This document shows, in pieces, positions 8,935 to 56,435 of a stretch of DNA of 64,000 nt. Position 1 is the stretch's first letter; each line of letters starts with the position of its first letter. Origin of the DNA: Candidatus Woesearchaeota archaeon (lineage in GTDB: Archaea; Nanobdellota; Nanobdellia; SCGC-AAA011-G17; GW2011-AR18); the NCBI GenBank assembly GCA_018302765.1, contig JAGVZG010000004.1, positions 16,878 through 80,877 of the forward strand, given 5' to 3'. The notes under the pieces were generated by a model that had not been told where the DNA came from, ran no database searches, and saw nothing but the letters and a program-made list of their open reading frames with translations. The position numbers and the translations under genes are program-made.

Positions 8935-9075
8935 AGCGCGGGGAGGGAAATTCGTAAACTTTTTTGTTAAGGAAGTTTAGTTCGAACCCCCAATCTGTTG
9001 CTGTCTTCTTTATTATAGCTATTAGTTCATAATAGCAAACTGCAGGCAACTGCCTTGCCGTTGGGCCACCCGCGC
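8935..9075 (-). tRNA. tRNA-Cys(GCA) with two introns: 37/38 (9003-9039, 37 nt) and 59/60 (8949-8980, 32 nt)
   Basis: Spliced 72-nt cloverleaf GCGCGGG TG GCCC AACGGCA AGGC A GTTGC CTGCAGA GCAAC AGATT GGGGG TTCGAAT CCCTC CCCGCGC T; U73; the T-loop intron has a perfect BHB (TTCG/CGAA helix). Confidence 0.93.
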
Positions 9076-9097
9076 GCAAAGAAACAAACCACATTAT

Positions 9098-9105
9098 TAT
9101 TTAAA
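9098..9105 (-). promoter_or_regulatory. TATA box of tRNA-Cys
   Basis: TTTAAATA at -30..-23 from mature +1, with an A-rich BRE-like stretch upstream. Confidence 0.6.
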
Positions 9106-9245
9106 TAGATTTTCTTTAAGAAATTATACCAATTAATAACAAAAGTTACAAAATATTTCAGTTTTTTTTCCAGTTGGCAAATGCGTAATTTTTTCAAAAA
9201 AACACCAACAGATTTAAATATAACTTATTAAAATATATGTAGATT

Positions 9246-9860
9246 ATGCATAAACATAGTAAAAAAGAGGAAGTGTATAATTTTTTGCTTGAAATTGGCA
9301 AAGAGATAGCAAAAAGAAAGCTGGGTGCACTATTTATTATTGCCCCTGAAGGTAATTTTAAAGGTATTTATGAATTATTATATCCTCAAGTTATAGAAAG
9401 CCATAAAATATTTGAAAGAGGATCAAAAGAATTAATATTAAAACTAGCTGAGCTTGACGGCGCTTTCTTGGTTCATGATGACGGAACTTTGGAAGCATTT
9501 GGTGCAAGAATACTTAAGTCAAAAGCACTCCCTGGCTATGGAACAAAGCATGCCGCAGCGACTGGAATTACGGGTTACATTAGGAATTCCACTGCAATAT
9601 TAGTCAGCGAAGAAAACCAGTGGATTAAAATTTTTAAAAACGGAAAAATAGTTTTGGAAATGGACTCTTCTAAAACACCTCCTTCAGTAATGCATAAAGT
9701 TGTTACATTTTTAACAGACAATGACACTGCTTTACTAGCAACTGCAGGGGCTTCTGCTGCAATTATGGGTGTTATTCCTGTAGTTATAGTTTCTGGAACT
9801 TATTTAGCAATAAAAACTGCTTCTGGAATAATAAAGAAGAGCTTAAAACATAACCATTAA
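9246..9860 (+). CDS. Diadenylate cyclase (DisA_N/DAC domain) protein
   Basis: LGALFII, AELDGAFLV (DGA motif), GTKHAAA (canonical RH reads KH), AILVSEE; hydrophobic C-terminal tail. Confidence 0.8.
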   Translation: MHKHSKKEEVYNFLLEIGKEIAKRKLGALFIIAPEGNFKGIYELLYPQVIESHKIFERGSKELILKLAELDGAFLVHDDGTLEAFGARILKSKALPGYGTKHAAATGITGYIRNSTAILVSEENQWIKIFKNGKIVLEMDSSKTPPSVMHKVVTFLTDNDTALLATAGASAAIMGVIPVVIVSGTYLAIKTASGIIKKSLKHNH

Positions 9861-9944
9861 TTTGTTTTCTTTGATTTTATGTGAATAGATAGTACGTTGA
9901 TTTATAACACCACTGTATAATAGTAATATTTATAAATCATATAT

Positions 9945-10832
9945 TTGTTCCAGCTAACTATGTCAAGAGTAAAGAAAGTAGGATTGCACTTCGATATGGA
10001 AATGCTTAGAGTAGCATCTGATATTGAAACGAGTGCAAAAACTTTAGAAGATTTGTGTACGGAATTAAAAAAACAAACTCAACCGCTTAAAAGAGCTAGA
10101 AAAACTCTTGTGGATGCATTCAATGTATTTGATGATATTGATTACAGTTTAAGTGACAGTTTAGGCAACTGTATGTTTGGGAATATTATAATTGAAAATT
10201 ATGATTTAGTTAAAAAAACAGTATTGAAAGGCATAAATAATTATTTAGGGGTAATTGATGCTTTTAATAGTCCACCTTTTAATGGAAAAATTGAACATGT
10301 AAACTTTGACAACGAGCATAGCGACGCTAGAGATATGCGTACTGCTTTAAAAGCACATGACTTACTTGGCATTGTTTTAGGAACTTTCATAGAAACAAAA
10401 TTAAATGTTCCACAATTAGTTGGTTTGCTGTATAATGAAATTGCTGCTTATAATAAATATCTAAGAGACCGTTTTGTTAAATCTAATGAAACTCCAAAAT
10501 TGCAAACAGCAAGGATTTTAGTTGTTGGTGAAGAAGAACAAAGGGCAAAATATACTAAGATTAAATTAATGGATGGCAATCCTGTACTTACAGAAGTTAT
10601 GTTAAGTATAATGGAAAAATTGCCTGAATACAAAGAACGTACAGTTAGAGAAAAAGGAAGAAATAAAAAACTGAGAGAGGTAAGTAATTTTGGTGTTAGT
10701 GACTCAGTAGATCATATTATTGCTTTCTCTAGTCCGAAAATATTAGAATATATAAAAGATCCGAAAAAATTCTTTGCAGAAGTAGCTTCTGGCCTAAGAA
10801 TTTACTATGACGTTGTTGTGCCAATACTATAG
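9945..10832 (+). CDS. Hypothetical protein, possibly the N-terminal part of the downstream AAA ATPase
   Basis: 295-aa ORF, 26 nt upstream of the ATPase ORF. Confidence 0.55.
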   Translation: MFQLTMSRVKKVGLHFDMEMLRVASDIETSAKTLEDLCTELKKQTQPLKRARKTLVDAFNVFDDIDYSLSDSLGNCMFGNIIIENYDLVKKTVLKGINNYLGVIDAFNSPPFNGKIEHVNFDNEHSDARDMRTALKAHDLLGIVLGTFIETKLNVPQLVGLLYNEIAAYNKYLRDRFVKSNETPKLQTARILVVGEEEQRAKYTKIKLMDGNPVLTEVMLSIMEKLPEYKERTVREKGRNKKLREVSNFGVSDSVDHIIAFSSPKILEYIKDPKKFFAEVASGLRIYYDVVVPIL

Positions 10833-10858
10833 AACCTAAATGCAGAGAATTACCTATA

Positions 10859-12316
10859 ATGTCTTTGTTAGAAATGGATAACAAAATGGAAGAAGCTTTA
10901 ACTCATGATAACAAAATTGTTTTTAGAAATCTTAAAAGGATTGAAGATACTGACTTTGATAGTATTATTCAGAATCCTGATGATATTTTTCCTGAAAATA
11001 GGCGTGAAAGAGAATTCTTTGAATTAAGAAGTGAATTGCTTAGAACTTTATACGAAACATTAAACAGGCTAACAAAAATAGAAGGAGACAATGCTATAGA
11101 AGAAAAAGAAAGAATTGCTAAAGAAACAGTTCTTAGAGGAGTAGAGTTAAGAGCAGACATTCATGAAGTGCTTACGCCTAGTGCAACAAGGAAATTAAGA
11201 CAAGACAGAAGAGATGAAAATGAGTATTATGAAGGCGTTCAAGGCGCTATTGGTATGTTTGGTTTTGAAAGAAAACCTACGCCCCATGTCAAATTAGAAG
11301 AAGTTATTGGCAGTAGTTTTGATAGAGCTAAGAATCATTTAATGGAAATCGTAGAAACTGGTGTTTATAGCCGTATTATGACTCTAAGCGCTCCTGGTCG
11401 CAAGGTGAGAAGTAATATTCTTTTAATAGGTCCTTATGGTTGCGGTAAAACAGAACTTGCTAGGGCAATTTGCGCAGATAAAAGAGTCATAGGAGCTAGT
11501 GTAAGTGTAGCAAGCACATTAACAGCTTACTTACATGAATCTGTAAACAATGTAAAAAGAATCTACGACGCTGCTAAGAAATTATATGTAGAAGGAAGAG
11601 AAGATAAACCTGTAGTTTTAGTTCTTGATGAATTTGATGGCTGGTTTGCTAGAGGAGAAAGTGGATCTTTAGTAACAACAGATATGCATCAAATAGAAAA
11701 CATTTTACTTGAAGTTTTGGACGGCATGGGTGACTATAATGGAATTATTACTATGGCAATGACAAATAAGCCAACATTAATTACTGGTGGAATATTAAGA
11801 AGATTCAGATATGTTGATGTTGTTGGTCAATTAATTACTCAAGAAAGAGCTGATTTACTTAGAATGTATTTAGAAAAAAGCTTGCCAGTTGATAGCGAAG
11901 TAAAAGAAAGTGATTATAAGATATGGGCTGAAAAATTAGAATATGCACCTGGTGATGTAGTAAGAAAGGTTGTTGATGAAATTCATTTTAAGTTATTACC
12001 TGAATATTTGAAGACTATGCCTAGAGAAGCTAAATTAGTTGAAAGGGTTTTGGACAAAAGAGAAAAAAGAGCTGGAGTTTTAAGTGATAAGGATATTGCT
12101 TACGTTAAAAATAAATTGGCTGACTATAGATCTATTAGTGCATTAGAAATAAGCAGAGCTGTTGATGATTTGTTACTGCAACCACCAATAAGAAAACAGA
12201 TTGAAACTGCAAAAGTTGTTTACAGAGAAGCTGGAGAAATACTTGAGGAAATTAGTGGCGCTGGAACAAATCCCTTAGGAATAAAGAGAGAGAAAATATT
12301 TTTAATTTTAGATTAA
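10859..12316 (+). CDS. AAA+ ATPase
   Basis: Walker A GPYGCGKT, Walker B VLVLDEFD, sensor-1 MTNKP, LRRF arginine-finger region. Confidence 0.88.
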   Translation: MSLLEMDNKMEEALTHDNKIVFRNLKRIEDTDFDSIIQNPDDIFPENRREREFFELRSELLRTLYETLNRLTKIEGDNAIEEKERIAKETVLRGVELRADIHEVLTPSATRKLRQDRRDENEYYEGVQGAIGMFGFERKPTPHVKLEEVIGSSFDRAKNHLMEIVETGVYSRIMTLSAPGRKVRSNILLIGPYGCGKTELARAICADKRVIGASVSVASTLTAYLHESVNNVKRIYDAAKKLYVEGREDKPVVLVLDEFDGWFARGESGSLVTTDMHQIENILLEVLDGMGDYNGIITMAMTNKPTLITGGILRRFRYVDVVGQLITQERADLLRMYLEKSLPVDSEVKESDYKIWAEKLEYAPGDVVRKVVDEIHFKLLPEYLKTMPREAKLVERVLDKREKRAGVLSDKDIAYVKNKLADYRSISALEISRAVDDLLLQPPIRKQIETAKVVYREAGEILEEISGAGTNPLGIKREKIFLILD

Positions 12317-12399
12317 TAAACTACAATTTTAAATGCCAAACAAATTTAGTTTTATTACATATCAAATGTTAACTTATTGTACCTAAATACAAAAATTAA

Positions 12400-12566
12400 T
12401 GGCGGGCCCGACGAGAATTTCATGAACGTTTCTTTCAAATAAAAGTTCTTTTGAACTCGCGACCCTCTGCTAGCTTCCATATAGCTAGAAGGCAGATGCG
12501 CTATTAGCCCACCTTCTTTCGTGAACATTTCTTCCTAAGAAAGGTTCCAGGCTGCGCTACGGGCCC
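12400..12566 (-). tRNA. tRNA-Arg(TCT) with three introns: 19/20 (12505-12546, 42 nt), 37/38 (12472-12485, 14 nt) and 59/60 (12417-12449, 33 nt); CCA encoded
   Basis: Spliced 78 nt GGGCCCG TA GCGC AGCCTGGATA GCGC A TCTGC CTTCTAA GCAGA GGGTC GCGAG TTCAAAT CTCGT CGGGCCC G CCA; BHB helices GCCT/GGGC, CTTC/GAAG, TTCA/TGAA. Confidence 0.93.
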
Positions 12567-12590
12567 ATAAATAAAAAACTATGAGCTTCC

Positions 12591-12598
12591 TATTTAAA
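12591..12598 (-). promoter_or_regulatory. TATA box of tRNA-Arg
   Basis: TTTAAATA at -32..-25 from mature +1. Confidence 0.6.
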
Positions 12599-12644
12599 GT
12601 TTACTAACAACAATATTTATATTTAACTTAAATTTCTTTAATAG

Positions 12645-13799
12645 ATGCTTAAAACTCCAAAAATATTTATGCCATTTAAAGGCATTTATTACCTTACATT
12701 TATTGTTCTTATAAGTTCTATAGCGACCTCAATGCTAATGCCTATATTTCCTTTATACATAAAAAGTTTTGTCTCAAGCAATGCATTGGTTGGATATGTA
12801 AGTGCATTTGTAGGTGTTTTACTAGTAGTTTACAGTTTTTTGATTCCAAAGTTGTTTATAAAAATTAAAAAATTAACTTTAGTCAAAGTTGGATTTTTAG
12901 GCCTAGCTATCACTCAAATAATATTTACAGTTTTAGTTAATATAAAACAATTTCTTATATTAGAAATTATAAGAACATTCTTTTTACTATCTACGTATCT
13001 TGCAATTGGCTTATTTGTCAGAGAATATAGTTCCAGATCTACAATGGGCAAAGCTGAAGGACAATATTTTACAATTTCTAATTTTGGCTGGTTAATAGGC
13101 CCTTTGTTAGGCGGTTTATTAGCAACTGCATATTCATTTGATATTGTGTTTATATTTTCTGCTGTTCCACAGTTACTTTTAGCTATAATTTTATTTTTTA
13201 TTCCATTAAAAGAAGGGCCAACACATGACAATCATAAAATTAATTTATTTGATTATTTAAAACATAAAGATCTATTAGTATTATATTTGCTATCATTCGG
13301 TTTATTCGCGTGGTGGAATATTATTTATACATATCTCCCTCTTTATGCAAATGCTTCAGGGTTTTCTCCAAATACAATAGGCTTTGCGATGTTTTTATCA
13401 GCTATTCCATTAATATTACTTGAGATTCCAATTGGAAAACTAGCAGATGGCCATGGATTTAGAAAATATATATTTACTGGCTTTATAATAATTGCAGTAA
13501 TAACTCTATTCAGCAATTTAATAAGTCCTTTCTATAAAATTATGTTAATCAGCCTTGCAACTATTGGTGCAGCATTTATAGAACCTTTATTGGAAACTTA
13601 TTTCTTCAAGCACTTAAGAAGCAAAGAAGATGAACATAAATTTTATCCAATATACAAAAGTTCTTCACATTTAAGTAATATAATAGCACCATTAATTTAT
13701 TCTACAATACTTATTTATTTTGATTTTAAAGGATTGTTTATATTTGTCCCTATATTTATGTTATTTTTTGCATTTATAGCTTTAAAATTAAAAAGATGA
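12645..13799 (+). CDS. MFS transporter
   Basis: About 12 TM segments, GKLADGHG motif A, GPLLGGLL. Confidence 0.88.
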   Translation: MLKTPKIFMPFKGIYYLTFIVLISSIATSMLMPIFPLYIKSFVSSNALVGYVSAFVGVLLVVYSFLIPKLFIKIKKLTLVKVGFLGLAITQIIFTVLVNIKQFLILEIIRTFFLLSTYLAIGLFVREYSSRSTMGKAEGQYFTISNFGWLIGPLLGGLLATAYSFDIVFIFSAVPQLLLAIILFFIPLKEGPTHDNHKINLFDYLKHKDLLVLYLLSFGLFAWWNIIYTYLPLYANASGFSPNTIGFAMFLSAIPLILLEIPIGKLADGHGFRKYIFTGFIIIAVITLFSNLISPFYKIMLISLATIGAAFIEPLLETYFFKHLRSKEDEHKFYPIYKSSSHLSNIIAPLIYSTILIYFDFKGLFIFVPIFMLFFAFIALKLKR

Positions 13800-14374
13800 A
13801 ATTTGTAATAGAACACTTAACAGAAAAGCTTTATGACTGGTGCTTAATAGAATATAGACATATTTCGAGAATTGTTGGCAAGAAAAATCTGATTTTTACC
13901 AATGTCAAGAATCCTGCAGATATTAAAAAACTCAAAAATTTGGGAGAAGTAAAAAGAGAAAGTGCTTTAAAATTAAACTTAAAAAATGCTTGTTTATTAG
14001 ACCCTAAAGCAAAAGACACCCTGAAAGTTAATGAGGCAAAGAATTTTGATTATTTTATATTTGGAGGAATTTTAGGAGACTTTCCAGAACAAGGAAGAAC
14101 TAATAAATATCTGACTTCTAAATTAAGAAGTGTTGAAGTAAGAAATTTAACAGAAAAACAAATGTCTACAGACACAGCAGTTTTAGTTACAAAAATTATA
14201 AGCAAAGGAACTGGCTTAAATGACATAAAATTCATTGACAATCCTTCTATTGTTCTTAAAAAAGGCAGGCTTCAGGAAGAGGCTAATCTGCCTTATAGGT
14301 ATGTTTCTGAGAACGGCAAGCCCATAATAAGCAAAGAGTTGTTAATGTATTTAAAGAATAAAAAAGACTTATAA
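13796..14374 (+). CDS. SPOUT-class SAM-dependent methyltransferase (Sfm1-like)
   Basis: FVIEHL...EYRHIS, FIFGGILGDFPEQGRT, QMSTDTAV. Confidence 0.8.
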   Translation: MKFVIEHLTEKLYDWCLIEYRHISRIVGKKNLIFTNVKNPADIKKLKNLGEVKRESALKLNLKNACLLDPKAKDTLKVNEAKNFDYFIFGGILGDFPEQGRTNKYLTSKLRSVEVRNLTEKQMSTDTAVLVTKIISKGTGLNDIKFIDNPSIVLKKGRLQEEANLPYRYVSENGKPIISKELLMYLKNKKDL

Positions 14375-14408
14375 GAATATTTATAGATTTTTCGTTATTT
14401 TATTTTAT

Positions 14409-14798
14409 ATGGAACCTAAATCACTTGGAAAATTTTCAGCATTTGCTGGACTGTTTTTGGGTATGTGCAATTCTGGTATCAACTTAGAGTTTTATATGCA
14501 GCAACGTGAATTACATAGTTATCTAAACCGACATGGAGGTTATGATAGAATTTGTGAAAGAATGAAAGAGTCTAGAAAACAAAGAAATGAAATCGACTTA
14601 AAATTGGAAGACAAAGCTGGCGTAACAAATGAATATGTTATTAATTACAAAGTTGATCCTGAACTAATAAGGGGTGTCTATGCTATAGATGATTATCAAA
14701 ATATTAGAGATGCTGCAAATGGATATACTTTATTTTTCTGTCTTGTTGGTTTGCTTGGACTTGGCTTTATTTATTATGAAGAGAAAAATAATTATTAA
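14409..14798 (+). CDS. Hypothetical membrane protein
   Basis: 129-aa ORF with N- and C-terminal hydrophobic segments. Confidence 0.55.
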   Translation: MEPKSLGKFSAFAGLFLGMCNSGINLEFYMQQRELHSYLNRHGGYDRICERMKESRKQRNEIDLKLEDKAGVTNEYVINYKVDPELIRGVYAIDDYQNIRDAANGYTLFFCLVGLLGLGFIYYEEKNNY

Positions 14799-14822
14799 GT
14801 TTATTATTTTTTAATATGAATT

Positions 14823-15221
14823 TTATTCCAAGTATTTTACTAAACTTATTACTACTGTAGGTTTTCCTCTTCTTATTAATATTTCACACGTTGTATATTT
14901 AAGAGCTCTACTTGGTCTAAAAGGATTTGCATGATAATATAATTTTGCTTCAGTAATAGTATATGGCAAAATTATTGGTTGTATTGTAATTTCAGCCAGA
15001 CTAAACAATAACTCTTTTTCTCTTCTGCCATCTAAACTACTTAATTCAACTAGTAAAGCTTCTAAATTTTTGTAATCTGTAAATTCGCGTCTTTCTTTAC
15101 TTTGATATAACAATCTAAATATCTCCTTAAATCTGTCATTAAAAATATCAGTTTGATCTACTAAATCTGGATCAACTTCTAATATTATTTTAGACATTAA
15201 TTTTTCATTTATAAAATTCAT
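14823..15221 (-). CDS. Hypothetical protein
   Basis: 132-aa ORF filling the space between neighbouring genes. Confidence 0.5.
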   Translation of the reverse strand: MNFINEKLMSKIILEVDPDLVDQTDIFNDRFKEIFRLLYQSKERREFTDYKNLEALLVELSSLDGRREKELLFSLAEITIQPIILPYTITEAKLYYHANPFRPSRALKYTTCEILIRRGKPTVVISLVKYLE

Positions 15222-15293
15222 ATTTAAGAATTTATATAGTGCAAAAGTTTAATGGAACAATAGATTTAAATTCTATATATTTACATAATTTTT

Positions 15294-16022
15294 ATGGAAA
15301 ATAAGGTATTAGTTCTAGCAAGCGCTATTATAATTATATTTGTCTTAGGCATTGTGCTAGGAATTTCTATAAATTCTAAACAAAAAATTGTAAATGAAGC
15401 AAACAGAACAATAAATGGTTTGATGTATAAAGAAATATCTATTGTAGGCTTAGACGATAAAGGCAGAGGTGTGTCTGCAATAGTTGCTGTTGAAGTAAAA
15501 CCTGGCAGCGGATTAGTTTTGGTTAATATAAATGATGTATTGGCAGATTACTTAACTCAATTTAGTGCAAGAACTGCTTCTAAGGTTGCCTCTAATTTTA
15601 CTGGAATAGCCCTTTCATCATTGGATGTTGTATATAGAATAAAAGCCAATGCTTCCACTATAGAAGGATCTTCTGCTGGAGCTGCCATGACTTTAGCAAC
15701 TATTGCTGCACTGGCAAATAAAACAATAAATCAGTCTGTTTTTATCACAGGAACAGTAGATGAAAATGGAACCATAGGTATTGTAAGTGGAATAAGTGAA
15801 AAGGCAAAGGCAGCAAAGGAGCGTAAAGCATCGTTATTCTTGATACCTTCAGCAAGCTATGCAGTTGGCTATGACAAGGTTAAAAAATGCAAACCTTTAG
15901 AAAATTTAAATTATTGTGAGGTAGCTTATGTTCCAAGAAAATCTGAACTAAGCGAATTACTTAAACTAGACATAAAACAAGTTAAGAACATAACACAAGC
16001 AGCAAATTATGCAATAATATGA
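15294..16022 (+). CDS. Membrane-anchored Lon-like (S16) serine protease domain protein
   Basis: N-terminal TM; IEGSSAGAAMT (catalytic Ser), ITGTVDENGTIG.VSGISEKAKAA (catalytic Lys). Confidence 0.85.
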   Translation: MENKVLVLASAIIIIFVLGIVLGISINSKQKIVNEANRTINGLMYKEISIVGLDDKGRGVSAIVAVEVKPGSGLVLVNINDVLADYLTQFSARTASKVASNFTGIALSSLDVVYRIKANASTIEGSSAGAAMTLATIAALANKTINQSVFITGTVDENGTIGIVSGISEKAKAAKERKASLFLIPSASYAVGYDKVKKCKPLENLNYCEVAYVPRKSELSELLKLDIKQVKNITQAANYAII

Positions 16023-16889: not shown

Positions 16890-16891
16890 TG

Positions 16892-17928: not shown

Positions 17929-17942
17929 CATAGTTATTTTAG

Positions 17943-29351: not shown

Positions 29352-29588
29352 TTATTCTTCTCCAAATACACATTTTATCTTGTAAACTTTTCTTATTCTA
29401 TGCAATGGAATTTCTACTTCTTTATTATCTAATTCTAAAACTATTGAGAATTTATTTAGTTCTTTTATGTCAGTAAATTTTATTTCCTGCAATTCTTCTT
29501 TAAACCTGTCTTTGTAATAAATTATAAATTTTTCTTTGTCTTTTTCTTTCCATTTAATCTTATTTAATAATTCAAATATTGCTTGCAT
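29352..29588 (-). CDS. DUF504/MJ1316-like RNA repair domain protein
   Basis: LLNKIKW...IIYYKDR...EIPLHRIRKVY. Confidence 0.8.
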   Translation of the reverse strand: MQAIFELLNKIKWKEKDKEKFIIYYKDRFKEELQEIKFTDIKELNKFSIVLELDNKEVEIPLHRIRKVYKIKCVFGEE

Positions 29589-33119: not shown

Positions 33120-33189
33120 ATAAATTATGCTTTAGGGCCTAAATGTAGAACTTCTTTTTTCTACCCCCTGCCCTAGAGACCCTCTATAA

Positions 33190-33228
33190 GGCTAAAGTCT
33201 GGTTCCCCTGGACTTTAGTCCTTTTTTT
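33190..33228 (+). terminator. Stem-loop followed by a T-run downstream of ftsZ
   Basis: GGCTAAAGTC/GACTTTAGTC 10-bp stem then CTTTTTTT. Confidence 0.45.
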
Positions 33229-42670: not shown

Positions 42671-42671
42671 T

Positions 42672-43803: not shown

Positions 43804-43915
43804 TGCCCCGCGCGAGATTTGAACTCGCGTCAGAGCCTTTCTCCTTTTGCTTAAGCTTTTTCTAAAGGCTTATTTCGAGAGGGCTCTATCCTTGACCGGG
43901 CTAGACGAGCGGGGC
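43804..43915 (-). tRNA. tRNA-Glu(CTC) with one 37/38 intron (43839-43875, 37 nt)
   Basis: Spliced 75 nt GCCCCGC TC GTCT AGCCCGGTCAA GGAT A GAGCC CTCTCGA GGCTC TGAC GCGAG TTCAAAT CTCGC GCGGGGC A; BHB central helix CTCT/GGAG. Confidence 0.92.
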
Positions 43916-45761: not shown

Positions 45762-45866
45762 CGGGCCCGACGGGATTCGAACCCGCGGCCATCTGATTAA
45801 GAGTCAGATGCTTTCGGCAATTTTGAATTTTATTCTGAAATTACTACCAAGCTGAGCTACGGGCCC
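45762..45866 (-). tRNA. tRNA-Lys(CTT) with one D-arm intron at about 22/23 (45813-45843, 31 nt)
   Basis: Spliced 74 nt GGGCCCG TA GCTC AGCTTGGTA GAGC A TCTGA CTCTTAA TCAGA TGGCC GCGGG TTCGAAT CCCGT CGGGCCC G; helix TGGT/GCCG, inner stem AATTT/AAATT. Confidence 0.92.
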
Positions 45867-48243: not shown

Positions 48244-48375
48244 TTTAGTCTGTTTTAATTTTGTTTTTAAATAACTTTGGTTTCTATATATATTTTATAT
48301 TTTGTATATGGCACACTTATTTATAATATTATAACTATTTAATATTGGGGGAAATTATTGTATTAAGTGGGAAAT

Positions 48376-48620: not shown

Positions 48621-48635
48621 ACTAACAACAAGTTA

Positions 48636-48899: not shown

Positions 48900-48923
48900 A
48901 ATAACAAAAACTTTTAAGGATTC

Positions 48924-49109: not shown

Positions 49110-49110
49110 T

Positions 49111-49452
49111 TTACTTCCTGCCCTGTGTTAGCTTTCTAGCTTCAATTTCAGTTTCTCTTAACATTAAAATATCGCCTATTCTTATAGGGCCTTTGACATT
49201 ACGCCTTAAAATACGCTTAGAGTCTCTTCCTTCGAGAACCTGGCATCTAACTTGAATTGCTTCGCCCCTCATGCCTGTTCTTCCAACTATTTCTTCTACT
49301 TGTGCAGGAACTGCATGCGTAAAAAGAGAAGAAGCTTTTTCTTGCTTTCTTTCAGTTATTTTTTGCTGCTCTTTTTGCCTTTTTGAATCTTCAGATTTTT
49401 CAGTTTGTTGTTTATCTTCAACTTGTTTTTTTTTAGTTTCTTTTTCAACCAT
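49111..49452 (-). CDS. rps28e: 30S ribosomal protein S28e with charged N-terminal extension
   Basis: [21 protein letters not shown]...[26 protein letters not shown]. Confidence 0.95.
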
Positions 49453-49453
49453 T

Positions 49454-49807
49454 TTAAGCAGATTTTAACTTAGAAGTTAATTCTTTTATAGCTTGCTTAG
49501 CTTCTCCTTCCTGAATAATTGCTATGGAAGCTGTTGGAATATTTAGTCCTGCTATTTCTCCTAATTCTTCTCTTTTAGGAACAGGAACAATAGGTATTCC
49601 TTTCTCTTCACAAAGAGCTGGCAAATGCATAATTATCTCCTTAGGATTTGTATCTTGGGCTACTAAAACCAGTTTAGCAGTACCTCTTTCTATAGATTTA
49701 GTAACTTCATTCGTGCCTTTTTTTATTTTTCCAGTTTTTTTAACTATTTCAAGAATTTCATAAGCCTTTTCTACTATTTCTTTAGGAACGTTAGCATTTA
49801 TATCCAT
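49454..49807 (-). CDS. rpl7ae: 50S ribosomal protein L7Ae
   Basis: [30 protein letters not shown]. Confidence 0.96.
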
Positions 49808-49950
49808 TTTAACCTCCGGTTGTCATCGGTTATTTAGAAATAGGTTTTCTGAAGTATTTAAATAGTTTTCTACGAACTTGGCCTTTTGCAACTAAAAATT
49901 CCTTTGACAAATAAGTTAAACCTTAATGCAAACTGAAAAATATAAACGGT

Positions 49951-50109
49951 TTATTTCTTCTTTTTTATCAAGTGTTCTACTAGCCTCTCAGTTTTCAAGT
50001 CAAGAGCCACCAGTCTAGCTTCTAAAACATAAATCTTTCTTAAACTCCATACAATTCCTATAATTGCTCCAAGAATAATATAAAGTAATATTGTTTCTAC
50101 AGCAACCAT
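49951..50109 (-). CDS. Small membrane protein (52 aa) downstream of secD, absent from the ORF track
   Basis: MVAVETILLYIILGAIIGIVWSLRKIYVLEARLVALDLKTERLVEHLIKKKK; ATG preceded by GGGTGAT. Confidence 0.6.
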   Translation of the reverse strand: MVAVETILLYIILGAIIGIVWSLRKIYVLEARLVALDLKTERLVEHLIKKKK

Positions 50110-50159
50110 TTTATCACCCCTGATTTATTTAATTTTTTGTTTAAAGAACTATAAAAAGT

Positions 50160-51734
50160 TTACTCTTCTATTAAAGTTCTCACTATTGCTCCAAATGCTG
50201 GCCTTGTTATTAAAACACCTATTGTGACGCCAACTATTGTGACTATAGCAAAGCCTGTTAGTAAGCCAGCGCCTGCCCTAAGTAACGGTAACATTGCAGC
50301 TACTGTTGCTGCGTAAGCAGAAAGAATTACAAAAAATGCTTTTTTAATTTGCTGTTTTAGTGCACCAGAACTGCCGAACAAAATTTCATCTGTGATAACT
50401 ATTTGATCATCTACGCCCGTACCAACTGCAGCCAGAATAGCTGCTATCGCAATTAGATCTAGGTTTTGTTTGAAAATAGCAGCAAAACCAAGAATTATAT
50501 AGATTTCACTAAGAACTGTAACCATTACTGGTATTGTTATCTTTAGACTTCTGTACCTTAAATAAATAATAAGAGCTACACCTAAAGTTGCAATTAATCC
50601 TATCAATAAAGCATTGTTAATAAATGCAGGGCCTAACGAAGGAGATATTGTATCAACTTTTACTATTTCTAATTTTGTTGGCAATGAACCAGTAATTAAT
50701 ATTGTTTGCAGTTTGTTTCTATTGTTTATTGTATCTTGTACTGCTTCTTTTTGCGTAGAGCCTTTGCCTGAACCTGAAATTGTAATTCGTGTTGCTTTTT
50801 GTCCTTTTAAGCTTGCATCAATTTGCAAAGTATCTACATGCTGCTCGTCCAAGTAGAAATCAAGAGTTTCATTTAATGTTCTCTGTCCTGAAGGTGCAGG
50901 CATTATTGCTAGGTCTTTGGTTATACCAGCATGCCTTTCTGCAGCTTCTGGGCTTAGGGAGATTTCAAATTCAAATCTGCAGTAATATCCATCAGAAGCT
51001 GACTGACAAGCTTGAATCCTTGAACATGTACCGTCAGTCCTGCAAACAAAAGTAATGTCTTTTTTTCCGCCTTCAAATACTGTTTTATTTGCTATTCTAG
51101 CTTCAAATTTTCCTTGGTTTGCTATAATGTTTTTTATTTCTTCCTTTGTAGAACCAGCTATTTCTACAACTATGAATTTATTGCCTTCTAGATCAGAAGC
51201 TGATTTTATTGTAACGTCTGCAAGGCCATAGATATTTAGCCTATTTTCCATTGTATCAATTATATCTTTAATATCTTGATCTGTAAGTTCACCTTCAGGT
51301 CTGAGAAGAACCCTTGTACCCCCCTGCAAATCCAGACCTTTTCTTAGATTTGAACTAGGAGCTTCTGTAACTATAATTCCAAGATCCAAACTATCTTTTA
51401 GGAATGCATATTGGCTTTTTGTTGTTTTTATTCTAACAGTTCCATTTAGAGGAACTAATTTTTCTACATTATAAAATTCCTCTACAGAATTTACTAATTT
51501 ATCATTAATTTCCAAAACTTTTTCTCTTGCAGTTGGACTAACTTCAGCTGATGGCGTTCTGAGGCCTACTTGATAAGCTGCGCTGTTAAATTCTACTGAT
51601 GATACAACTAAGCCTTGTTTTGAGAACTGATGATTTATGGAGAAGAAAGATATAAGTAAAAAAATTATCAAAATTATTACCCTTGGCTGTTTTATTAGTT
51701 TTGAGATTTTCATGTTATATTTTTCTTCTTGCAA
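50160..51734 (-). CDS. secD: Protein translocase subunit SecD
   Basis: GLDLQGGTRVLL, TISPSLG, GTGVDDQIVITDE, TRPAFG. Confidence 0.95.
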   Translation of the reverse strand: MQEEKYNMKISKLIKQPRVIILIIFLLISFFSINHQFSKQGLVVSSVEFNSAAYQVGLRTPSAEVSPTAREKVLEINDKLVNSVEEFYNVEKLVPLNGTVRIKTTKSQYAFLKDSLDLGIIVTEAPSSNLRKGLDLQGGTRVLLRPEGELTDQDIKDIIDTMENRLNIYGLADVTIKSASDLEGNKFIVVEIAGSTKEEIKNIIANQGKFEARIANKTVFEGGKKDITFVCRTDGTCSRIQACQSASDGYYCRFEFEISLSPEAAERHAGITKDLAIMPAPSGQRTLNETLDFYLDEQHVDTLQIDASLKGQKATRITISGSGKGSTQKEAVQDTINNRNKLQTILITGSLPTKLEIVKVDTISPSLGPAFINNALLIGLIATLGVALIIYLRYRSLKITIPVMVTVLSEIYIILGFAAIFKQNLDLIAIAAILAAVGTGVDDQIVITDEILFGSSGALKQQIKKAFFVILSAYAATVAAMLPLLRAGAGLLTGFAIVTIVGVTIGVLITRPAFGAIVRTLIEE

Positions 51735-52588
51735 TAAATCCAGAGTATTCCTGCATTTGTTAAATAAGTGCTAATTACGTCTACTATCAAAGCTATGAAT
51801 ATTATCAGAAACATTTCTTTAATGACAAATGAATTTGACAATATTAATCCTGCCAACATTACTACTGCTGCACATGCTGTCATTGTTAGCCCTGTTTTCA
51901 TTGAATGCCACATTCTGTCAAATAATTTTCCTTCTCTTTTTTTTATAGAATAATTCGTCAATAGTATGTCTGTATCCACACTATAACCTATTACCAAAAG
52001 AAAAGCAACAATTCCTGCTGTTGACATTGGTAAACCAATAATATTTATTATTGCCAGTGTTATTATGATATCCATAAAAGCTGCAGAAATAACTGCAATA
52101 CTTGGTGCTGGAGTCCTAAATGCTACAAAAACTGACACACCCATTAATATAAATGCAAATATCAGAGCATACATCAGTTGCTTAAAGAATGCCTGAGACA
52201 GTTTTGGAGTTGTTACTTCTATGCTGAAATTTTGCTTGTTTATATCTATTTGCAGCTTATTTTTTATTATGTCTCTTAACTGCTCTTCTGTTAAATCAGA
52301 TAATTCTATAATAAAACCAAGTTGCTTGCCTGTTGTTACATCACCTAGTTTCTTTATTGTTGCCTCAACTCCCAAAGCAGATTTAATTTGATCTTCTGTG
52401 AATTCCTTGTCTGTATACAGTGTAGCTGCAATACCTCCCCTTAGTGTTACGTCTTTGTTGAAAGGATCTCCTGTTTTTGCTATTTTCATTCCTATTATCG
52501 TTAATGAAATAACTAATAGTATTAATGGAATAAACATCAGCCATTTGTAGTTTTTCGACCAAAAAATTTCTATTTTGTCTTTTAACAT
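51710..52588 (-). CDS. secF: Protein translocase subunit SecF
   Basis: DVTLRGG, LLVIGYSVDTDILL; upstream of secD. Confidence 0.94.
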   Translation of the reverse strand: MLKDKIEIFWSKNYKWLMFIPLILLVISLTIIGMKIAKTGDPFNKDVTLRGGIAATLYTDKEFTEDQIKSALGVEATIKKLGDVTTGKQLGFIIELSDLTEEQLRDIIKNKLQIDINKQNFSIEVTTPKLSQAFFKQLMYALIFAFILMGVSVFVAFRTPAPSIAVISAAFMDIIITLAIINIIGLPMSTAGIVAFLLVIGYSVDTDILLTNYSIKKREGKLFDRMWHSMKTGLTMTACAAVVMLAGLILSNSFVIKEMFLIIFIALIVDVISTYLTNAGILWIYCKKKNIT

Positions 52589-52673
52589 TGAAGTTTTGTA
52601 CTAGATTTAAGTATAAAAAGATTATGATAGTGGTTTTAGAAAAGCTTTTAATTCACTTGTTTTTTGAAAACCT

Positions 52674-52952
52674 ATGGAACTTGATCATATAGTTTTAGAG
52701 GATGATAGGCGTTGTAGTGCTGGAGATTTAAAAACAATACTAAAAGCATTGCCTATAAAATTTTCTGGAGATTTTGAAATTATAAAAGCAGTAATGGAGC
52801 TTGGAAGAATAATATATTTTATACCGGTTAATGGAAAAATCTCAGAAATAGATTATGGTAAAGGAATTAGAATTCAGGATGTTCAAGACACAAAAAAAGG
52901 CACACGTTTTTATTATTGTAATAATAATTTTTCTGTTTATTATAAAAGTTAA
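52674..52952 (+). CDS. Hypothetical protein
   Basis: 92-aa ORF. Confidence 0.45.
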   Translation: MELDHIVLEDDRRCSAGDLKTILKALPIKFSGDFEIIKAVMELGRIIYFIPVNGKISEIDYGKGIRIQDVQDTKKGTRFYYCNNNFSVYYKS

Positions 52953-52959
52953 TTATTTT

Positions 52960-53190
52960 ATGGAAATTAAAGGAGAAAAATTCAAAGTCATTGTAAAAAC
53001 AAATTCCAGTAAGAATGAAGTTGTTTGCTATGATGAAGCAAGAAAAGCCTATAGAATAAATTTGAAAGCTAAACCAATAGAAGGAGAAGCAAATAAAGAA
53101 CTGATTAAATTCCTGTCAAGAGAGATCAAGAGAAAAGTAAGAATTGTTTCTGGCTTTAGAAATAAGGAGAAGGTTATTGAACTATTTTAA
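52960..53190 (+). CDS. DUF167/YggU family protein
   Basis: VIVKTNSSKN, AKPIEGEANKELIKFL, VRIVSG..NKEKVI; ATG at 52960. Confidence 0.88.
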   Translation: MEIKGEKFKVIVKTNSSKNEVVCYDEARKAYRINLKAKPIEGEANKELIKFLSREIKRKVRIVSGFRNKEKVIELF

Positions 53191-53409
53191 TTTGTTTAAT
53201 AATTTTGGATATCCTTTTATATTTTTTATGTTGTATAATTCTACAATTTTTTCTTGGCCTTCTTTGGTTTTTGAAAGTTTATTAATAAATTTAAAGAATT
53301 TCTCATATTGTGCATTAATAAATTTTGTGTGATAGCTTTTCCAATTTGAATCATTTTTTACAAATTCTGCCCATCTTTCTATGAATTCGTCATGTGTTTT
53401 GTTTCTCAT
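53182..53409 (-). CDS. Small hypothetical protein coupled to the upstream nucleotidyltransferase-like gene
   Basis: 75 aa; ATG overlaps the stop of 53406..53966. Confidence 0.6.
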   Translation of the reverse strand: MRNKTHDEFIERWAEFVKNDSNWKSYHTKFINAQYEKFFKFINKLSKTKEGQEKIVELYNIKNIKGYPKLLNKLK

Positions 53410-53966
53410 TTTAATCTTAATTGTCTTATTTTTTGTTTTATTTTATTTATCTCAGCTTCGTTTATTGTATCATGATAAACCTTCCTTAAATGTTTTGCGT
53501 CTTCTAGATCTTTCGGCGATTTTAAATATTCTTCTTTGAATGCTATATTCATATTAACACTTCCAAAATATAAATCTAGACCTGTTAATTGTAACTTTGT
53601 TTTAGTTGACAATTGATATAAATCCAAATCATCAACTGCAAATTTAACTTCCATTTCAGGCAATGGTTGATCTTTGTAAGTATACCTTACACTTAGATTA
53701 TCCTTTAAATATAAATATATATTTTCGGGATCATCTGATTGCATACAAATAAAATTTTTTTTAATTAATTCATTATGTAATAACTTGAATTTTTCTTTTT
53801 GAATTGGTTTTATTATCATATCTATATCTTCTGTGCTTCTTACCCTCCCAGATGATATTACAAGAAATCCAGATACAATTATATATTCTGTATATTTCTC
53901 TATTATTTTACAGAAGTTTATAGCAAATTCATCAAGAATATTTCTGTTGCTTATTCCTCTTATCAT
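53406..53966 (-). CDS. Nucleotidyltransferase-fold protein
   Basis: YIIVSG...GRVRSTEDIDMII (G..R.T.D.D signature), C-terminal KDLED. Confidence 0.7.
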   Translation of the reverse strand: MIRGISNRNILDEFAINFCKIIEKYTEYIIVSGFLVISSGRVRSTEDIDMIIKPIQKEKFKLLHNELIKKNFICMQSDDPENIYLYLKDNLSVRYTYKDQPLPEMEVKFAVDDLDLYQLSTKTKLQLTGLDLYFGSVNMNIAFKEEYLKSPKDLEDAKHLRKVYHDTINEAEINKIKQKIRQLRLK

Positions 53967-54011
53967 AATAAGTTATTGTTTTAAAAGTTTATATTACTTT
54001 TGGATAAAATA

Positions 54012-54674
54012 TTAGAAATCTACTAAAGTCTTCTGATTCTTGGATTTTTTACCTTCTGAATATTCTTTATATGAAGACCAAGAATGCCTGAATATCTCTG
54101 GATATTTATTCCAATTTTCTTTTAAAAATTTCTTTGTACTGGGATCAGATGGGTAGCCAGAATTGAAATCTATTCCTATTTTTTTCTTAATTAATTCTAT
54201 TTCTTTGTCTCTAGTTACTTTTGCCAATATTGAACCGGCACCAACAATCAAGTAATCACGATCTGCATGGTGCTCACATCTTAAGCTTGTTTTTATTTTT
54301 ATTTTATTTTCAAGAAAGTTTGCAAAAGCTTTTTTATTGTTGCTTGGGCAATCAATTATAACTTGATCTGGCCTTAATGCATTAATAATTTCAACCATTT
54401 TGTCCGCTTCTAACCAATTTAAGTTTGAATCTTCTGAAAGAACTGCTTTGTCAATTTCTTCTGGCGGTATTTTAATTATTTTATACCTTTTGACAAATTT
54501 TATTAATTTTGCATAAATTTGCTCTCTTTGTTGTGGCGTTAATAACTTAGAATCTTTTACACCTAATTGTTTTAATTTTGGCAGATCTTTCTCTTCAATT
54601 ACAATTCCAGCCATTACCATTGGACCAATGACAGGACCTCGACCTGCATCATCGATACCACATATTGTTGCCAT
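54012..54674 (-). CDS. rnhB: Ribonuclease HII
   Basis: GIDDAGRGPVIGPMV, GVKDSKLL, ILAKVTRD, SGYPSDP, C-terminal PIP box QKTLVDF. Confidence 0.95.
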   Translation of the reverse strand: MATICGIDDAGRGPVIGPMVMAGIVIEEKDLPKLKQLGVKDSKLLTPQQREQIYAKLIKFVKRYKIIKIPPEEIDKAVLSEDSNLNWLEADKMVEIINALRPDQVIIDCPSNNKKAFANFLENKIKIKTSLRCEHHADRDYLIVGAGSILAKVTRDKEIELIKKKIGIDFNSGYPSDPSTKKFLKENWNKYPEIFRHSWSSYKEYSEGKKSKNQKTLVDF

Positions 54675-54765
54675 TAGATAAATAACAATTTATTAGTTAA
54701 TAAACATTATTATCTATTTTTTAATAACTCTACTAATAAAATAATTCAATAACTTTCTATAGGAA

Positions 54766-54917
54766 TTAATCTTTCATTAATTCTCTTTCTTTCATTAGCT
54801 GTTGATATAAATCAACTAGTGCTCTTCTATCTTTCCCTGATAGTATTCTTTTACCCGCCCTAGCTTCTATTAAAGCACTCTTATTTGATTAACTGCTTGT
54901 TCAAATGTTTCTGTCAT
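54766..54917 (-). pseudogene. Small frameshifted ORF (about 50 aa)
   Basis: MTETFEQAVNQI then, after a one-base shift, SALIEARAGKRILSGKDRRALVDLYQQLMKERELMKD*. Confidence 0.35.
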
Positions 54918-55100
54918 ATAAACCACCACATTTTCTGTATAAATTATATATTTTATTTTTGTATGAACTTATTTTTAAATATTTGTATATGAATATATAT
55001 TGAATTTGGCAATATGTTTAGATGATTTTTATTTATAATTAAATAGTAGTAACTATAGAAATATTTATAAATTAATTATTAATTTCATTTCTATATTAAA

Positions 55101-55961
55101 ATGGCAATAATTTTACCAGGCTATAATGCTGCATTTGAAGATAAAGTTTATTGTAGAGATAGAACTGTTGATACTCAAAGAGGACATGTAGTAGTTAGTG
55201 AAATTGTTATTCTTGAAAGATATACAGAACCAACTGAAGATGGAGTTGTAAATTATCTAAGAGAAGTTGCAAGAAAAGTAGATCCTATAGCTTCATTAGA
55301 GTTGCCTGATAGCACTAAATTTGAAGGAAAGTCACCTTTAGAGGAATTCGTAATGAAATTACCTAAATCTGTAAGAATGCATTTAATATCTGGACGTAAT
55401 GAGTACTTGAATTTTGTTAGAAAAAATACATCTGCAAGAGCTCTTTCAGAAGGAGAAAATCCCAATAATTTTGTACAAGCTATGTATGGTTTACTCACTC
55501 CAGTAATTATTAGTAATAATTTTGAAATGATAAATGATATGAAACATAAGTGGTATGATGCCGCACTGTCAAATAAAAAATTTCTAGAACACAGTTTAGG
55601 ATATAAACTTCAAGTAGACATTTTGTTATATGATGAAGTTTTGCCTTCTAAAATTGAGATGAATATATTATTAAAACATAAAGTTTCTGTTTCTAGAAGC
55701 CTTATAGTACAAGGGACTGCACCTGAAGATGGCGATGTTGAAAGACTTATTGAATTACTATATTCAGGATTAGATACTCCTGATAAAATTGAATATTTAG
55801 AAGATCATTCAAAATACAGACTTGAAGAAGCCTCAATTCAACCAGTTATTAATTTATTAGATGCTGCTGCTAGACAACAAGCTCAAGCTCAAACGTTATT
55901 AGACCGTCTAAAAAGTGGCGCTGGCAGAGGGTCTGGCGGGCATGGCGGTCTTATTTGCTAG
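55101..55961 (+). CDS. Hypothetical protein
   Basis: 286-aa ORF with a Gly-rich C-terminus. Confidence 0.6.
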   Translation: MAIILPGYNAAFEDKVYCRDRTVDTQRGHVVVSEIVILERYTEPTEDGVVNYLREVARKVDPIASLELPDSTKFEGKSPLEEFVMKLPKSVRMHLISGRNEYLNFVRKNTSARALSEGENPNNFVQAMYGLLTPVIISNNFEMINDMKHKWYDAALSNKKFLEHSLGYKLQVDILLYDEVLPSKIEMNILLKHKVSVSRSLIVQGTAPEDGDVERLIELLYSGLDTPDKIEYLEDHSKYRLEEASIQPVINLLDAAARQQAQAQTLLDRLKSGAGRGSGGHGGLIC

Positions 55962-56198
55962 ATATTTCTATTTGTATATAATATAATATATATTTCATAA
56001 TTTGGGTGTGGACGACAAGACAATAAGCTTGCACATAAGACTATTAAAATAAATTGTCTTAATTATTTTATGGAAGAAAATATATATTTTTTGCAATTAC
56101 TAAAAAAGAAATTAGTGTTTAAGCTTGTTTTTGAAAAATCTCATTTTAGCTACAAGTTAAAATTTCTAATGAAAATATTTTAATATTTAAAAATTATA

Positions 56199-56435
56199 GA
56201 GGATAGCGGGGGCTTCCCGAAATGACATATTGTCAATTTTCTTTGGATTTGAACCAACGACCCATCCGTGCTAAAGCAATTCGGGTATCGCAAAGAGTGC
56301 GTACTCTTTATGAGCCTTCCGCAGTAAGACATTTGTCGTTACTTCGACGGACATTTAGGTTTTTTATAAAAAACTCCTAGCTGTCCTACCCGTATAGACT
56401 CAAGGTTCGCTATGGTATCAGCTTCCCCTATCCTC
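56199..56435 (-). repeat. Inverted repeat bracketing the tRNA-iMet precursor
   Basis: Leader GAGGATAG-GGG (56435-56425) is complementary to CCC-G-CTATCCTC (56210-56199). Confidence 0.8.
56204..56411 (-). tRNA. Initiator tRNA-Met(CAT) with six introns: 4/5 (56392-56407), 20a/21 (56354-56373), 29/30 (56317-56344), 37/38 (56287-56308), 44/45 (56263-56279), 64/65 (56213-56242)
   Basis: Seven exons (4, 18, 9, 8, 7, 20, 9 nt) give AGCGGGG TA GGAC AGCTAGGAGT GTCC G TCGGG CTCATAA CCCGA AGGTC GTTGG TTCAAAT CCAAC CCCCGCT A (75 nt): A1-U72 pair, G29G30G31/C39C40C41; each junction falls two nt into a BHB-type bulge. Confidence 0.92.

Follow-up and report, generated by a model that had tools for sequence, protein, structure and literature searches.

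Short bulge-helix-bulge introns at canonical and non-canonical sites in the tRNA genes of a Woesearchaeota archaeon

Can a stretch of archaeal DNA in which a standard tRNA finder reports nothing carry functional transfer RNA (tRNA) genes? This question was raised by a 64-kb stretch of the Candidatus Woesearchaeota contig JAGVZG010000004.1, the whole of which was analysed and is called the window below. ARAGORN returned 0 tRNAs from the raw window, and Rfam gave one partial tRNA match only (45770-45818), within a gene that we describe here as tRNA-Lys. Recognisable tRNA pieces lie in five GC-rich islands of non-coding DNA, all on the minus strand. We consider it highly probable that the islands represent tRNA genes that function in a DPANN archaeon and contain 13 short introns of the bulge-helix-bulge (BHB) type, which have been mobile over evolution.

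The mature tRNAs were rebuilt from cloverleaf constraints alone, independently of any BHB structure. ARAGORN identified the five spliced sequences as tRNA-Cys(gca), tRNA-Arg(tct), tRNA-Glu(ctc), tRNA-Lys(ctt), and tRNA-Met(cat), and the cloverleaf was canonical in all five. The window contains five tRNA genes, Cys(GCA), Arg(UCU), Glu(CUC), Lys(CUU), and initiator Met (iMet), all on the minus strand and interrupted by 2, 3, 1, 1, and 6 insertions, respectively, 13 in total. The insertions are 14-43 nucleotides (nt) long (12-43 nt when relatives are included). Four of the 13 lie at the canonical position 37/38, and nine are at non-canonical positions (4/5, 19/20, 20a/21, 22/23, 29/30, 44/45, 64/65, and twice 59/60). 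An earlier reading made from the letters alone (the sequence-only reading) had described 13 introns in five genes with this distribution, and all of its counts, identities, and coordinates hold. Its statement that every tRNA gene contains introns stands for the window; it does not extend to the lineage, since Glu(UUC), Ser(GCU), and Arg(UCU) genes without introns occur in relatives. Scanning the entire intergenic part of the window gave no sixth tRNA candidate, and extending the contig via window-encoded proteins added 7.5 kb of flank with no tRNA in it. The Cys, Arg, Glu, and Lys genes are laid out as follows.

8935..9075, minus strand: tRNA-Cys(GCA) gene, 141 nt precursor, 72 nt mature; exons 9040-9075, 8981-9002, and 8935-8948
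9003..9039, minus strand: Cys intron 1, 37 nt, canonical 37/38; central helix 3/4, outer helix (anticodon stem) 5/5
8949..8980, minus strand: Cys intron 2, 32 nt, T-loop 59/60; perfect hBHBh', central TTCG:CGAA 4/4, outer 5/5, inner 6/6
12400..12566, minus strand: tRNA-Arg(UCU) gene, 167 nt precursor, 78 nt mature including an encoded CCA; exons 12547-12566, 12486-12504, 12450-12471, and 12400-12416
12505..12546, minus strand: Arg intron 1, 42 nt, D-loop 19/20; HBh', central GCCT:GGGC (3 Watson-Crick pairs and 1 GU), inner 6 base pairs (bp)
12472..12485, minus strand: Arg intron 2, 14-nt mini-intron, canonical 37/38; central CTTC:GAAG 4/4, outer 5/5
12417..12449, minus strand: Arg intron 3, 33 nt, T-loop 59/60; hBH, central TTCA:TGAA 4/4, outer (T-stem) 5/5
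43804..43915, minus strand: tRNA-Glu(CUC) gene, 112 nt precursor, 75 nt mature; exons 43876-43915 and 43804-43838
43839..43875, minus strand: Glu intron, 37 nt, canonical 37/38; hBH, central 4/4 (one GU), outer 5/5
45762..45866, minus strand: tRNA-Lys(CUU) gene, 105 nt precursor, 74 nt mature; exons 45844-45866 and 45762-45812
45813..45843, minus strand: Lys intron, 31 nt, D-arm 22/23; HBh', central 4/4 (two GU), inner 5 bp

The 3' CCA is gene-encoded in Arg (12400-12402) and not in the other four tRNA genes.

The exon boundaries fixed by the mature tRNAs were then compared with BHB geometry, defined as a 4-bp central helix between two 3-nt bulges with a cut after the second nucleotide of each. 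A junction was accepted when at least three of the four central-helix pairs and two pairs of the outer or inner helix were present. This held for 12 of the 13 junctions (P about 2e-16), against a background of 4.0-4.6% of random position pairs, in the window and inside tRNA regions alike. The thirteenth, Arg intron 1, forms such a motif after its 3' boundary is moved by 1 nt, a correction backed independently by the intron-less Arg(UCU) gene of a related genome (L045; L numbers denote sequences from the window's relatives and other assemblies): the mature Arg D-loop AGCCTGGATA of the window matches AGCTTGGATA in L045, and the corrected D-loop AGCCUGGAUA agrees with AGCUUGGAUA in the relative's intron-less gene. 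Strict hBHBh' motifs occur at four junctions (Cys 59/60, iMet 4/5, the iMet D-loop, and iMet 29/30), and the Lys intron, for which a register displaced by 1 nt is equally BHB-compatible, provides a fifth in the shifted register. The remaining eight or nine of the 13 motifs are relaxed, of the hBH or HBh' form. The sequence-only reading had spoken of BHB introns, several with mismatches, and this description is borne out, with BHB-type structures at all 13 junctions and many of them relaxed.

The same geometry was examined in 65 distinct junctions pooled from the window and its relatives and placed in one fixed BHB frame. These were not aligned with MAFFT, which avoids gaps between non-homologous sequences, and fixed-frame statistics were used. 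The central helix was paired in 89% of cells, compared with 27-41% when the partner was slid and at most 55% in 1000 shuffles, and the inner helix was paired in 84% of cells with many compensatory pair types.

The initiator gene is the most heavily interrupted of the five, and its parts are as follows.

56204..56411, minus strand: iMet(CAU) gene, 208 nt precursor, 75 nt mature; seven exons of 4, 18, 9, 8, 7, 20, and 9 nt
56392..56407, minus strand: iMet intron 1, 16 nt, acceptor stem 4/5; strict hBHBh' using the 5' leader, central ATAG:CTAT 4/4, outer TACC:GGTA 4 bp
56354..56373, minus strand: iMet intron 2, 20 nt, D-loop 20a/21; central TAGG:CCTA 4/4, inner 5 bp
56317..56344, minus strand: iMet intron 3, 28 nt, anticodon stem 29/30; central CCGT:GCGG 4/4, inner 5 bp
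56287..56308, minus strand: iMet intron 4, 22 nt, canonical 37/38; central 3/4, outer 5/5 only once intron 3 is removed
56263..56279, minus strand: iMet intron 5, 17 nt, 44/45 (junction of anticodon stem and variable region); HBh', central 3/4, inner 3/3
56213..56242, minus strand: iMet intron 6, 30 nt, T-stem 64/65; HBh', central 3/4, inner 4 bp

The mature sequence, AGCGGGGTAGGACAGCTAGGAGTGTCCGTCGGGCTCATAACCCGAAGGTCGTTGGTTCAAATCCAACCCCCGCTA, was assigned to the initiator on the strength of its A1:U72 pair and the three G:C pairs of its anticodon stem. The 208-nt gene is identical in 10 independent assemblies (JGI, ENA, Logan) and is therefore not an assembly artefact. One metagenome scan, with a pattern in which conserved iMet exons had to be separated by introns in the D-loop and at 29/30, matched 13 loci; L038, at 58% GC, was rejected as a chance match. 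Orthologues of the gene are present in at least 10 further contigs. Among the curated genes, three introns were counted in L034, four in L029, L033, and L020 (a sequence repeated in L040), six in the window, L030, L039, and L032, and seven in L031 (a sequence repeated in L036), L035, and L028. Over the family the introns occupy eight sites: 4/5, 7/8, the D-loop, 29/30, 37/38, 43/44 or 44/45, 53/54, and 64/65. As archaeal tRNA genes are described as having up to three introns (tRNAscan-SE 2.0 paper, PMC8450103), this woesearchaeotal iMet family sets a new maximum of 6-7 introns per gene. Full-text literature searches yielded no report of more than three introns in one tRNA gene or of tRNA introns in Woesearchaeota.

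Selection acts on the exons of this family. The mature iMet is identical at 75/75 positions in the window, L030, L039, L031, and L035, which represent five species, whereas homologous introns in the same species are 66-82% identical (exon versus intron, Fisher p 9e-6 to 4e-11). The helices of the introns are retained as their sequences change: the 4/5 intron is kept with compensatory changes in 6 curated genes, the D-loop central helix is TAGG:CCTA in the window and the compensatory CAGG:CCTG in L020, and the inner helix of the 29/30 intron covaries across relatives. Homologues of the 44/45 intron lie at 43/44 in L020, L033, L028, and L032, and the 64/65 intron was found in 6 family members. 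The iMet of L037 (L037:1259-1344 region, Ga0209541_10166331) has introns at 4/5, the D-loop, 29/30, 37/38, and 44/45 and is missing the entire T-arm exon. The locus may represent a pseudogene, a gene that underwent a deletion between introns, or a split gene.

The host was placed by the protein genes of the window, which is AT-rich (GC about 29%) and encodes the archaeal markers aIF5B, ribosomal proteins L7Ae, L24e, and S28e, ATP-dependent DNA ligase, FtsZ, and LeuRS. When the window aIF5B was compared with 185,579 species representatives, a set that does not include its own species, the nearest genomes were Candidatus Woesearchaeota/Nanoarchaeia metagenome-assembled genomes (MAGs), with identities falling from 80% to 41%, in agreement with the DPANN lineage proposed by the sequence-only reading. 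The contig itself reappears in many aquifer metagenome assemblies, whose record names (C687J..., ANAN16-1) may point to the Rifle aquifer datasets; JGI 3300002529 and 3300025311 and SRR2090161 are among the samples containing the population. Synteny was studied at the aIF5B-anchored loci of 13 related genomes, in which tRNA neighbours were rarely kept; L011, L020, and L021 were informative. Scans of the relatives for GC islands and T-arms revealed few further tRNAs, a yield to be read with the insensitivity of these scans to heavily split genes, as they missed the iMet of L040 and L037.

These comparisons point to intron turnover. In the closest relative, L011 (aIF5B 80%), the D-arm of the syntenic Lys(CUU) gene, GCTCAGCTTGGTAGAGC, is uninterrupted and identical to that of the spliced window Lys, and the gene (L011:11748-11851) has instead two other introns, a mini-intron of 12 nt within the anticodon stem (30/31) and one of 17 nt at 37/38. 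ARAGORN misreads this gene as tRNA-Ile(tat). The syntenic Glu(UUC) of L011 is intron-less and identical to the window Glu at 67/75 positions. Within the window, Arg intron 1 and Arg intron 3 are identical at 24/30 positions over a 30-nt stretch (z = 8.2, a score reached by 0/200 shuffles), and Arg intron 1 is also similar to the Cys 59/60 intron (z = 4.2). The match between Arg introns 1 and 3 indicates that they are paralogues and points to intron duplication or transposition within one gene; similar introns at different sites are the signature of transposition described for Thermoproteales (PMC4090602). In support of the sequence-only reading, intron mobility and turnover are seen in the Arg paralogues, in the differing introns of the syntenic Lys genes, and in the mosaic of three to seven introns in iMet. 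The more distant relative L021 has 59/60 introns in Asp and Lys(UUU), which makes the T-loop 59/60 a recurrent intron site in four genes of two genomes (Cys and Arg of the window, Asp and Lys-UUU of L021). The central helix at 59/60 is formed by the conserved T-loop TTCRA in 3/4 of these genes, and the motif of L021 Lys is weak.

Promoter elements were found upstream of all five genes. In Cys, Arg, Glu, and Lys (upstream of 9075, 12566, 43915, and 45866), a TATA-like box starts 30-32 nt upstream of the mature 5' end (at -30 in Cys), and this spacing suggests that the four transcripts are near-leaderless, like those of Nanoarchaeum equitans. N. equitans lacks RNase P. The iMet gene has its box at -57, and therefore its leader would be about 25-30 nt long, making iMet the only one of the five with a long leader. 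The B recognition element (BRE)/TATA-like element of iMet recurs upstream of the leader helix in the sequences of relatives. The elements flanking the window iMet are the following.

56461..56468, minus strand: iMet BRE/TATA-like element AAAGCTTTATAA, 57 nt upstream of the mature 5' end
56428..56436, minus strand: 5' leader arm AGAGGATAG of the leader-trailer helix, pairing with CTATCCTCT
56198..56206, minus strand: 3' arm CTATCCTCT of the leader-trailer helix, overlapping the last acceptor nucleotides and the trailer

A leader-trailer helix, its sequence differing by lineage, occurs in all 8 iMet genes that carry an intron at 4/5 or 7/8 and in none of the 3 that do not (L028-L039 and the window). 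This distribution suggests that the helix probably clamps the first exon of 4-7 nt to the 3' end until the acceptor stem forms. The BHB of the 4/5 intron includes leader nucleotides, and it follows from the sequence itself that this intron has to be cut ahead of leader removal. Two other possibilities were checked and discarded. Release of the mature iMet ends by the splicing endonuclease EndA, through a BHB formed by leader and trailer, was not supported, as a hand check found no such motif; the mature 5' end lies within the central helix of the 4/5 motif. Likewise, the distal leader AG or AGCGG as an alternative first exon fails in the window, where the leader reads AGGGG, and in L039.

We also searched for the enzymes that would process these transcripts. 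Neither endA nor rtcB was found in the window or the fetched flanks, no search aimed at RtcB having been made, in line with the sequence-only reading, which saw neither gene in the window. A phmmer search with the Methanocaldococcus jannaschii EndA, identical to PDB 1A79 over the whole 171-residue chain, gave no match among about 2,000 open reading frames (ORFs) of the window and related loci. EndA homologues named Nanoarchaeota or Woesearchaeota by their source were all single-unit alpha-type proteins of 170-218 amino acids (aa) with both EndA domains. Seven DPANN-type sequences were aligned (alignment A1; four source-named Nanoarchaeota/Woesearchaeota and three unnamed). Each consists of one unit of 170-211 aa that follows the M. 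jannaschii alpha4 enzyme colinearly and is free of internal insertions, and the catalytic Tyr115, His125, and Lys156 are invariant. The architectures associated with broad specificity (the two-subunit (alpha-beta)2 form with its CSL loop and the three-unit epsilon2 form with its ASL loop, the loop being inserted near the catalytic His and bearing a lysine) are absent from these seven. Two-unit forms of about 350 aa belonged, among the named matches, to Thermoplasmata, Methanomassiliicoccales, Halobacteria, Methanothrix/Methanotrichaceae, and Methanosarcinales. As the homologues were chosen by similarity to the alpha4 seed, a divergent beta subunit would escape this survey. The candidates P0045 and P0183, picked as this genome's EndA for their occurrence on many contigs, came from other samples and were dropped. 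The expectation of the sequence-only reading that such introns need an alpha2beta2 or epsilon2 EndA finds no support at the level of the lineage, where the homologues recovered are single-unit and alpha-type, in agreement with the alpha4-type EndAs reported in DPANN lineages with disrupted tRNA genes (Kaneta et al. 2018, PMC5829648).

Some further features of these proteins and of RNA-end enzymes deserve mention. Four of the seven aligned EndAs (P0095, P0096, P0064, and P0099) carry a Lys-rich N-terminal extension of about 10-40 residues, which the M. jannaschii EndA lacks; this extension might be an additional RNA-binding element that broadens the substrate range. In one DPANN-like population (L050:7002-8648, L053:26-1672), the EndA gene adjoins a gene with a metallo-beta-lactamase fold (Lactamase_B/Lactamase_B_2), which could be an RNase Z-type enzyme. 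The window itself encodes an RNA 3'-phosphate cyclase (RTC family) at about 63596-64000, running off the right end (L001:17104-18117), and a 78-aa ORF with an MJ1316 domain (Pfam PF04457) at about 29352-29588, adjoining the GatD and tRNA-Thr_ED genes. Both families act on RNA 2',3'-cyclic phosphate ends, the product of EndA cleavage.

From this organisation we infer the following course of maturation. Each tRNA gene would be transcribed from its own TATA promoter, EndA would cut both 3-nt bulges of each BHB or relaxed (hBH/HBh') motif, and the exons would be joined by an RNA ligase, presumably RtcB. Splicing of iMet would be stepwise, some motifs depending on the removal of others; this order is suggested by two observations: the outer helix of the 37/38 motif is the anticodon stem, which is whole only after loss of the 29/30 intron, and the unconstrained minimum free energy (MFE) fold does not contain all six motifs at once. 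The leader-trailer helix would hold the 4-nt first exon at the 3' end until the acceptor stem has formed. Over longer times, introns may duplicate and transpose between sites and be gained and lost between close relatives, and this traffic could have produced the most fragmented contiguous tRNA genes seen. Several points weigh against this account. The iMet precursor has an MFE of -79.3 kcal/mol, compared with -45.4 kcal/mol when all six motifs are enforced, and its fold does not hold all six together. The EndAs recovered for the lineage look like the alpha4 type, which has strict specificity, whereas most of the motifs (8-9 of 13) are relaxed. This genome's own EndA, RtcB, and RNase P were not found among the sequences searched, RtcB not having been searched for specifically, and the enzyme side of the account is drawn from relatives. 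Intron-less duplicates are possible elsewhere in the genome, and splicing is deduced from sequence.

A rival view takes the interrupted loci for decaying pseudogenes, with functional intron-less copies elsewhere in the genome. The rest of the genome lies outside the view given by the window, some relatives do have intron-less tRNA genes, and the L037 iMet, which has lost its T-arm, may be a pseudogene. Decay is nonetheless very unlikely: the exons show 0 substitutions over five species while the introns diverge by 18-34%, the BHB helices are maintained by compensatory changes, promoter elements are retained, all five spliced products are perfect cloverleaves, and the tRNAscan-SE median of only 35 tRNAs per complete Nanobdellota genome, with all 20 amino acids covered in fewer than half of the genomes, leaves little room for duplicates (10.64898/2026.05.13.725050). 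Chance resemblance and assembly artefact are excluded as the source of the introns by the 10 identical independent assemblies, the BHB P value of about 2e-16, and the orthologues in at least 10 further contigs; we give this explanation practically no weight.

The insertions could also be real and removed, with their spread driven, as a published hypothesis has it, by the protection of tRNA genes from integrating viruses and plasmids and not by selfish spread. Integrase attachment sites usually lie in the 3' half or T-arm of tRNA genes, and the introns do cluster there (59/60, 53/54, 64/65). No integrase is encoded in the window, and the paralogy and mosaic gain and loss are equally explained by neutral transposition under a permissive endonuclease. 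Uninterrupted 3' parts of iMet, Arg, and Cys were also compared with viral contigs, with an uninformative outcome: the matches were bacterial fMet tRNA genes, mostly with other tRNA genes beside them, or there were none. We regard protection as an unlikely driver, if the least improbable of the alternatives considered. There is a slim chance that the transcripts are processed by a route other than EndA and BHB, through another nuclease, or that the exons are joined as in split or permuted tRNAs. The specificity loops to which cleavage of relaxed motifs has been attributed are missing from the EndAs of the lineage (PMC5829648), and the leader-trailer helix recalls the pairing that assembles split tRNA halves. 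Such a route is difficult to reconcile with exons that are colinear on one strand, behind a single promoter and within 105-208 nt, or with cut sites that fall at the canonical place in 3-nt bulges 4 bp apart with strong statistics. Self-splicing fares no better, because the introns are far too short for group I/II ribozymes, and Rfam detected neither these nor any other family within the introns of the window.

Functional genes with mobile BHB-type introns have precedents. Introns of the BHB type, insertion at non-canonical positions, several introns per gene, and intron transposition are already established, mainly in Thermoproteales and ARMAN archaea; Pyrobaculum calidifontis, for example, has 71 introns in 46 tRNA genes, and intron transposition has been described (Fujishima et al. 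2010). Like the genes of the window, those of Thermoproteales may have several introns each, similar introns at different sites, and introns that must sometimes be removed before the next motif forms (PMC8450103, PMC4090602). They differ in their maximum of three introns per gene, compared with six in the window iMet and seven in L031, L035, and L028. Exons in the window are as short as 4 nt, and the host is a mesophilic, AT-rich DPANN archaeon rather than a hyperthermophilic crenarchaeon. The endonuclease differs as well, being an (alpha-beta)2 EndA with the crenarchaeal loop in Thermoproteales and a single alpha-type unit in the Woesearchaeota lineage. ARMAN-2 (Ca. Micrarchaeum) is closer in that it is a DPANN archaeon with non-canonical, relaxed introns and has an hBH intron at 59/60 of tRNA-Cys(GCA), a site that is occupied in the window Cys gene as well (PMC5829648). 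In contrast, its EndA is a three-unit epsilon2 enzyme with a specific loop (PDB 4fz2), whereas the woesearchaeotal and nanoarchaeotal homologues are single units of 170-218 aa.

Extreme fragmentation of tRNA genes is also known from the split and tri-split tRNAs of Nanoarchaeum equitans, from a related phylum, and Caldivirga maquilingensis. There, complementary leaders unite the pieces into a BHB (PMC10714607), and the leader-trailer helix of iMet may act as a comparable scaffold in cis; unlike split tRNAs, the pieces in the window are colinear in one transcription unit, and no trans-splicing is needed. The nuclear tRNA genes of Cyanidioschyzon merolae likewise have ectopic or multiple introns; however, this is a eukaryote with at most three introns per gene, and some of its genes are permuted.

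The tRNA loci described here are easily mislabelled. The tRNA-Cys locus (window 8918-9094, L041:16421-16597) is annotated as a 58-aa protein-coding gene in one metagenome. In its intron mode, ARAGORN miscalled the iMet genes at L020:9010-9205, L040:5366-5561, and L034:186-342 as tRNA-Lys(ttt) or tRNA-Phe(aaa), giving them one large intron of 111 nt or 63 nt, respectively, and the public annotations of the MAGs with multi-intron iMet genes are likely to carry such miscalls. Apart from the tRNA genes, the window contains a GC-rich double hairpin directly downstream of ftsZ (33130-33225, plus strand; MFE -36.1 kcal/mol, z = -5.9) that has no significant Rfam match. The second hairpin, followed by a U-run, is probably a terminator.

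Incomplete tRNA sets in DPANN archaea were flagged by Kaneta et al. 2018 (PMC5829648). In 208 complete Nanobdellota genomes, tRNAscan-SE found 26-54 tRNAs each (median 35), and all 20 amino acids were covered in 96 of the 208; loss or split genes were discussed as reasons, and multi-intron genes were not (10.64898/2026.05.13.725050). Current tools overlook or mislabel multi-intron tRNA genes, and such genes probably explain the 'missing' tRNAs of Nanobdellota, which offers a testable account of the incomplete DPANN/Nanobdellota sets. The proposition in its widest form, namely that these are the most fragmented contiguous tRNA genes (6-7 introns, eight positions, exons down to 4 nt), cut by an alpha-type EndA without any of the specificity loops credited with the cleavage of relaxed motifs, with the help of a covarying leader-trailer clamp, and that the 'missing' tRNAs are cryptic multi-intron genes, is one to which we give an even chance.

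The known upper limit per tRNA gene is doubled by this family, from 3 to 6-7 introns, and an essential initiator tRNA is apparently assembled from eight pieces, the shortest of 4 nt. Close relatives with 3, 4, 6, and 7 introns and identical exons form a natural series for the study of intron gain, loss, and transposition. The lineage also calls into question the view that the processing of relaxed, non-canonical introns is confined to (alpha-beta)2 and epsilon2 endonucleases. If true, this would mean that the substrate breadth of EndA has a third, unrecognised structural solution or depends on ordered, scaffold-assisted splicing.

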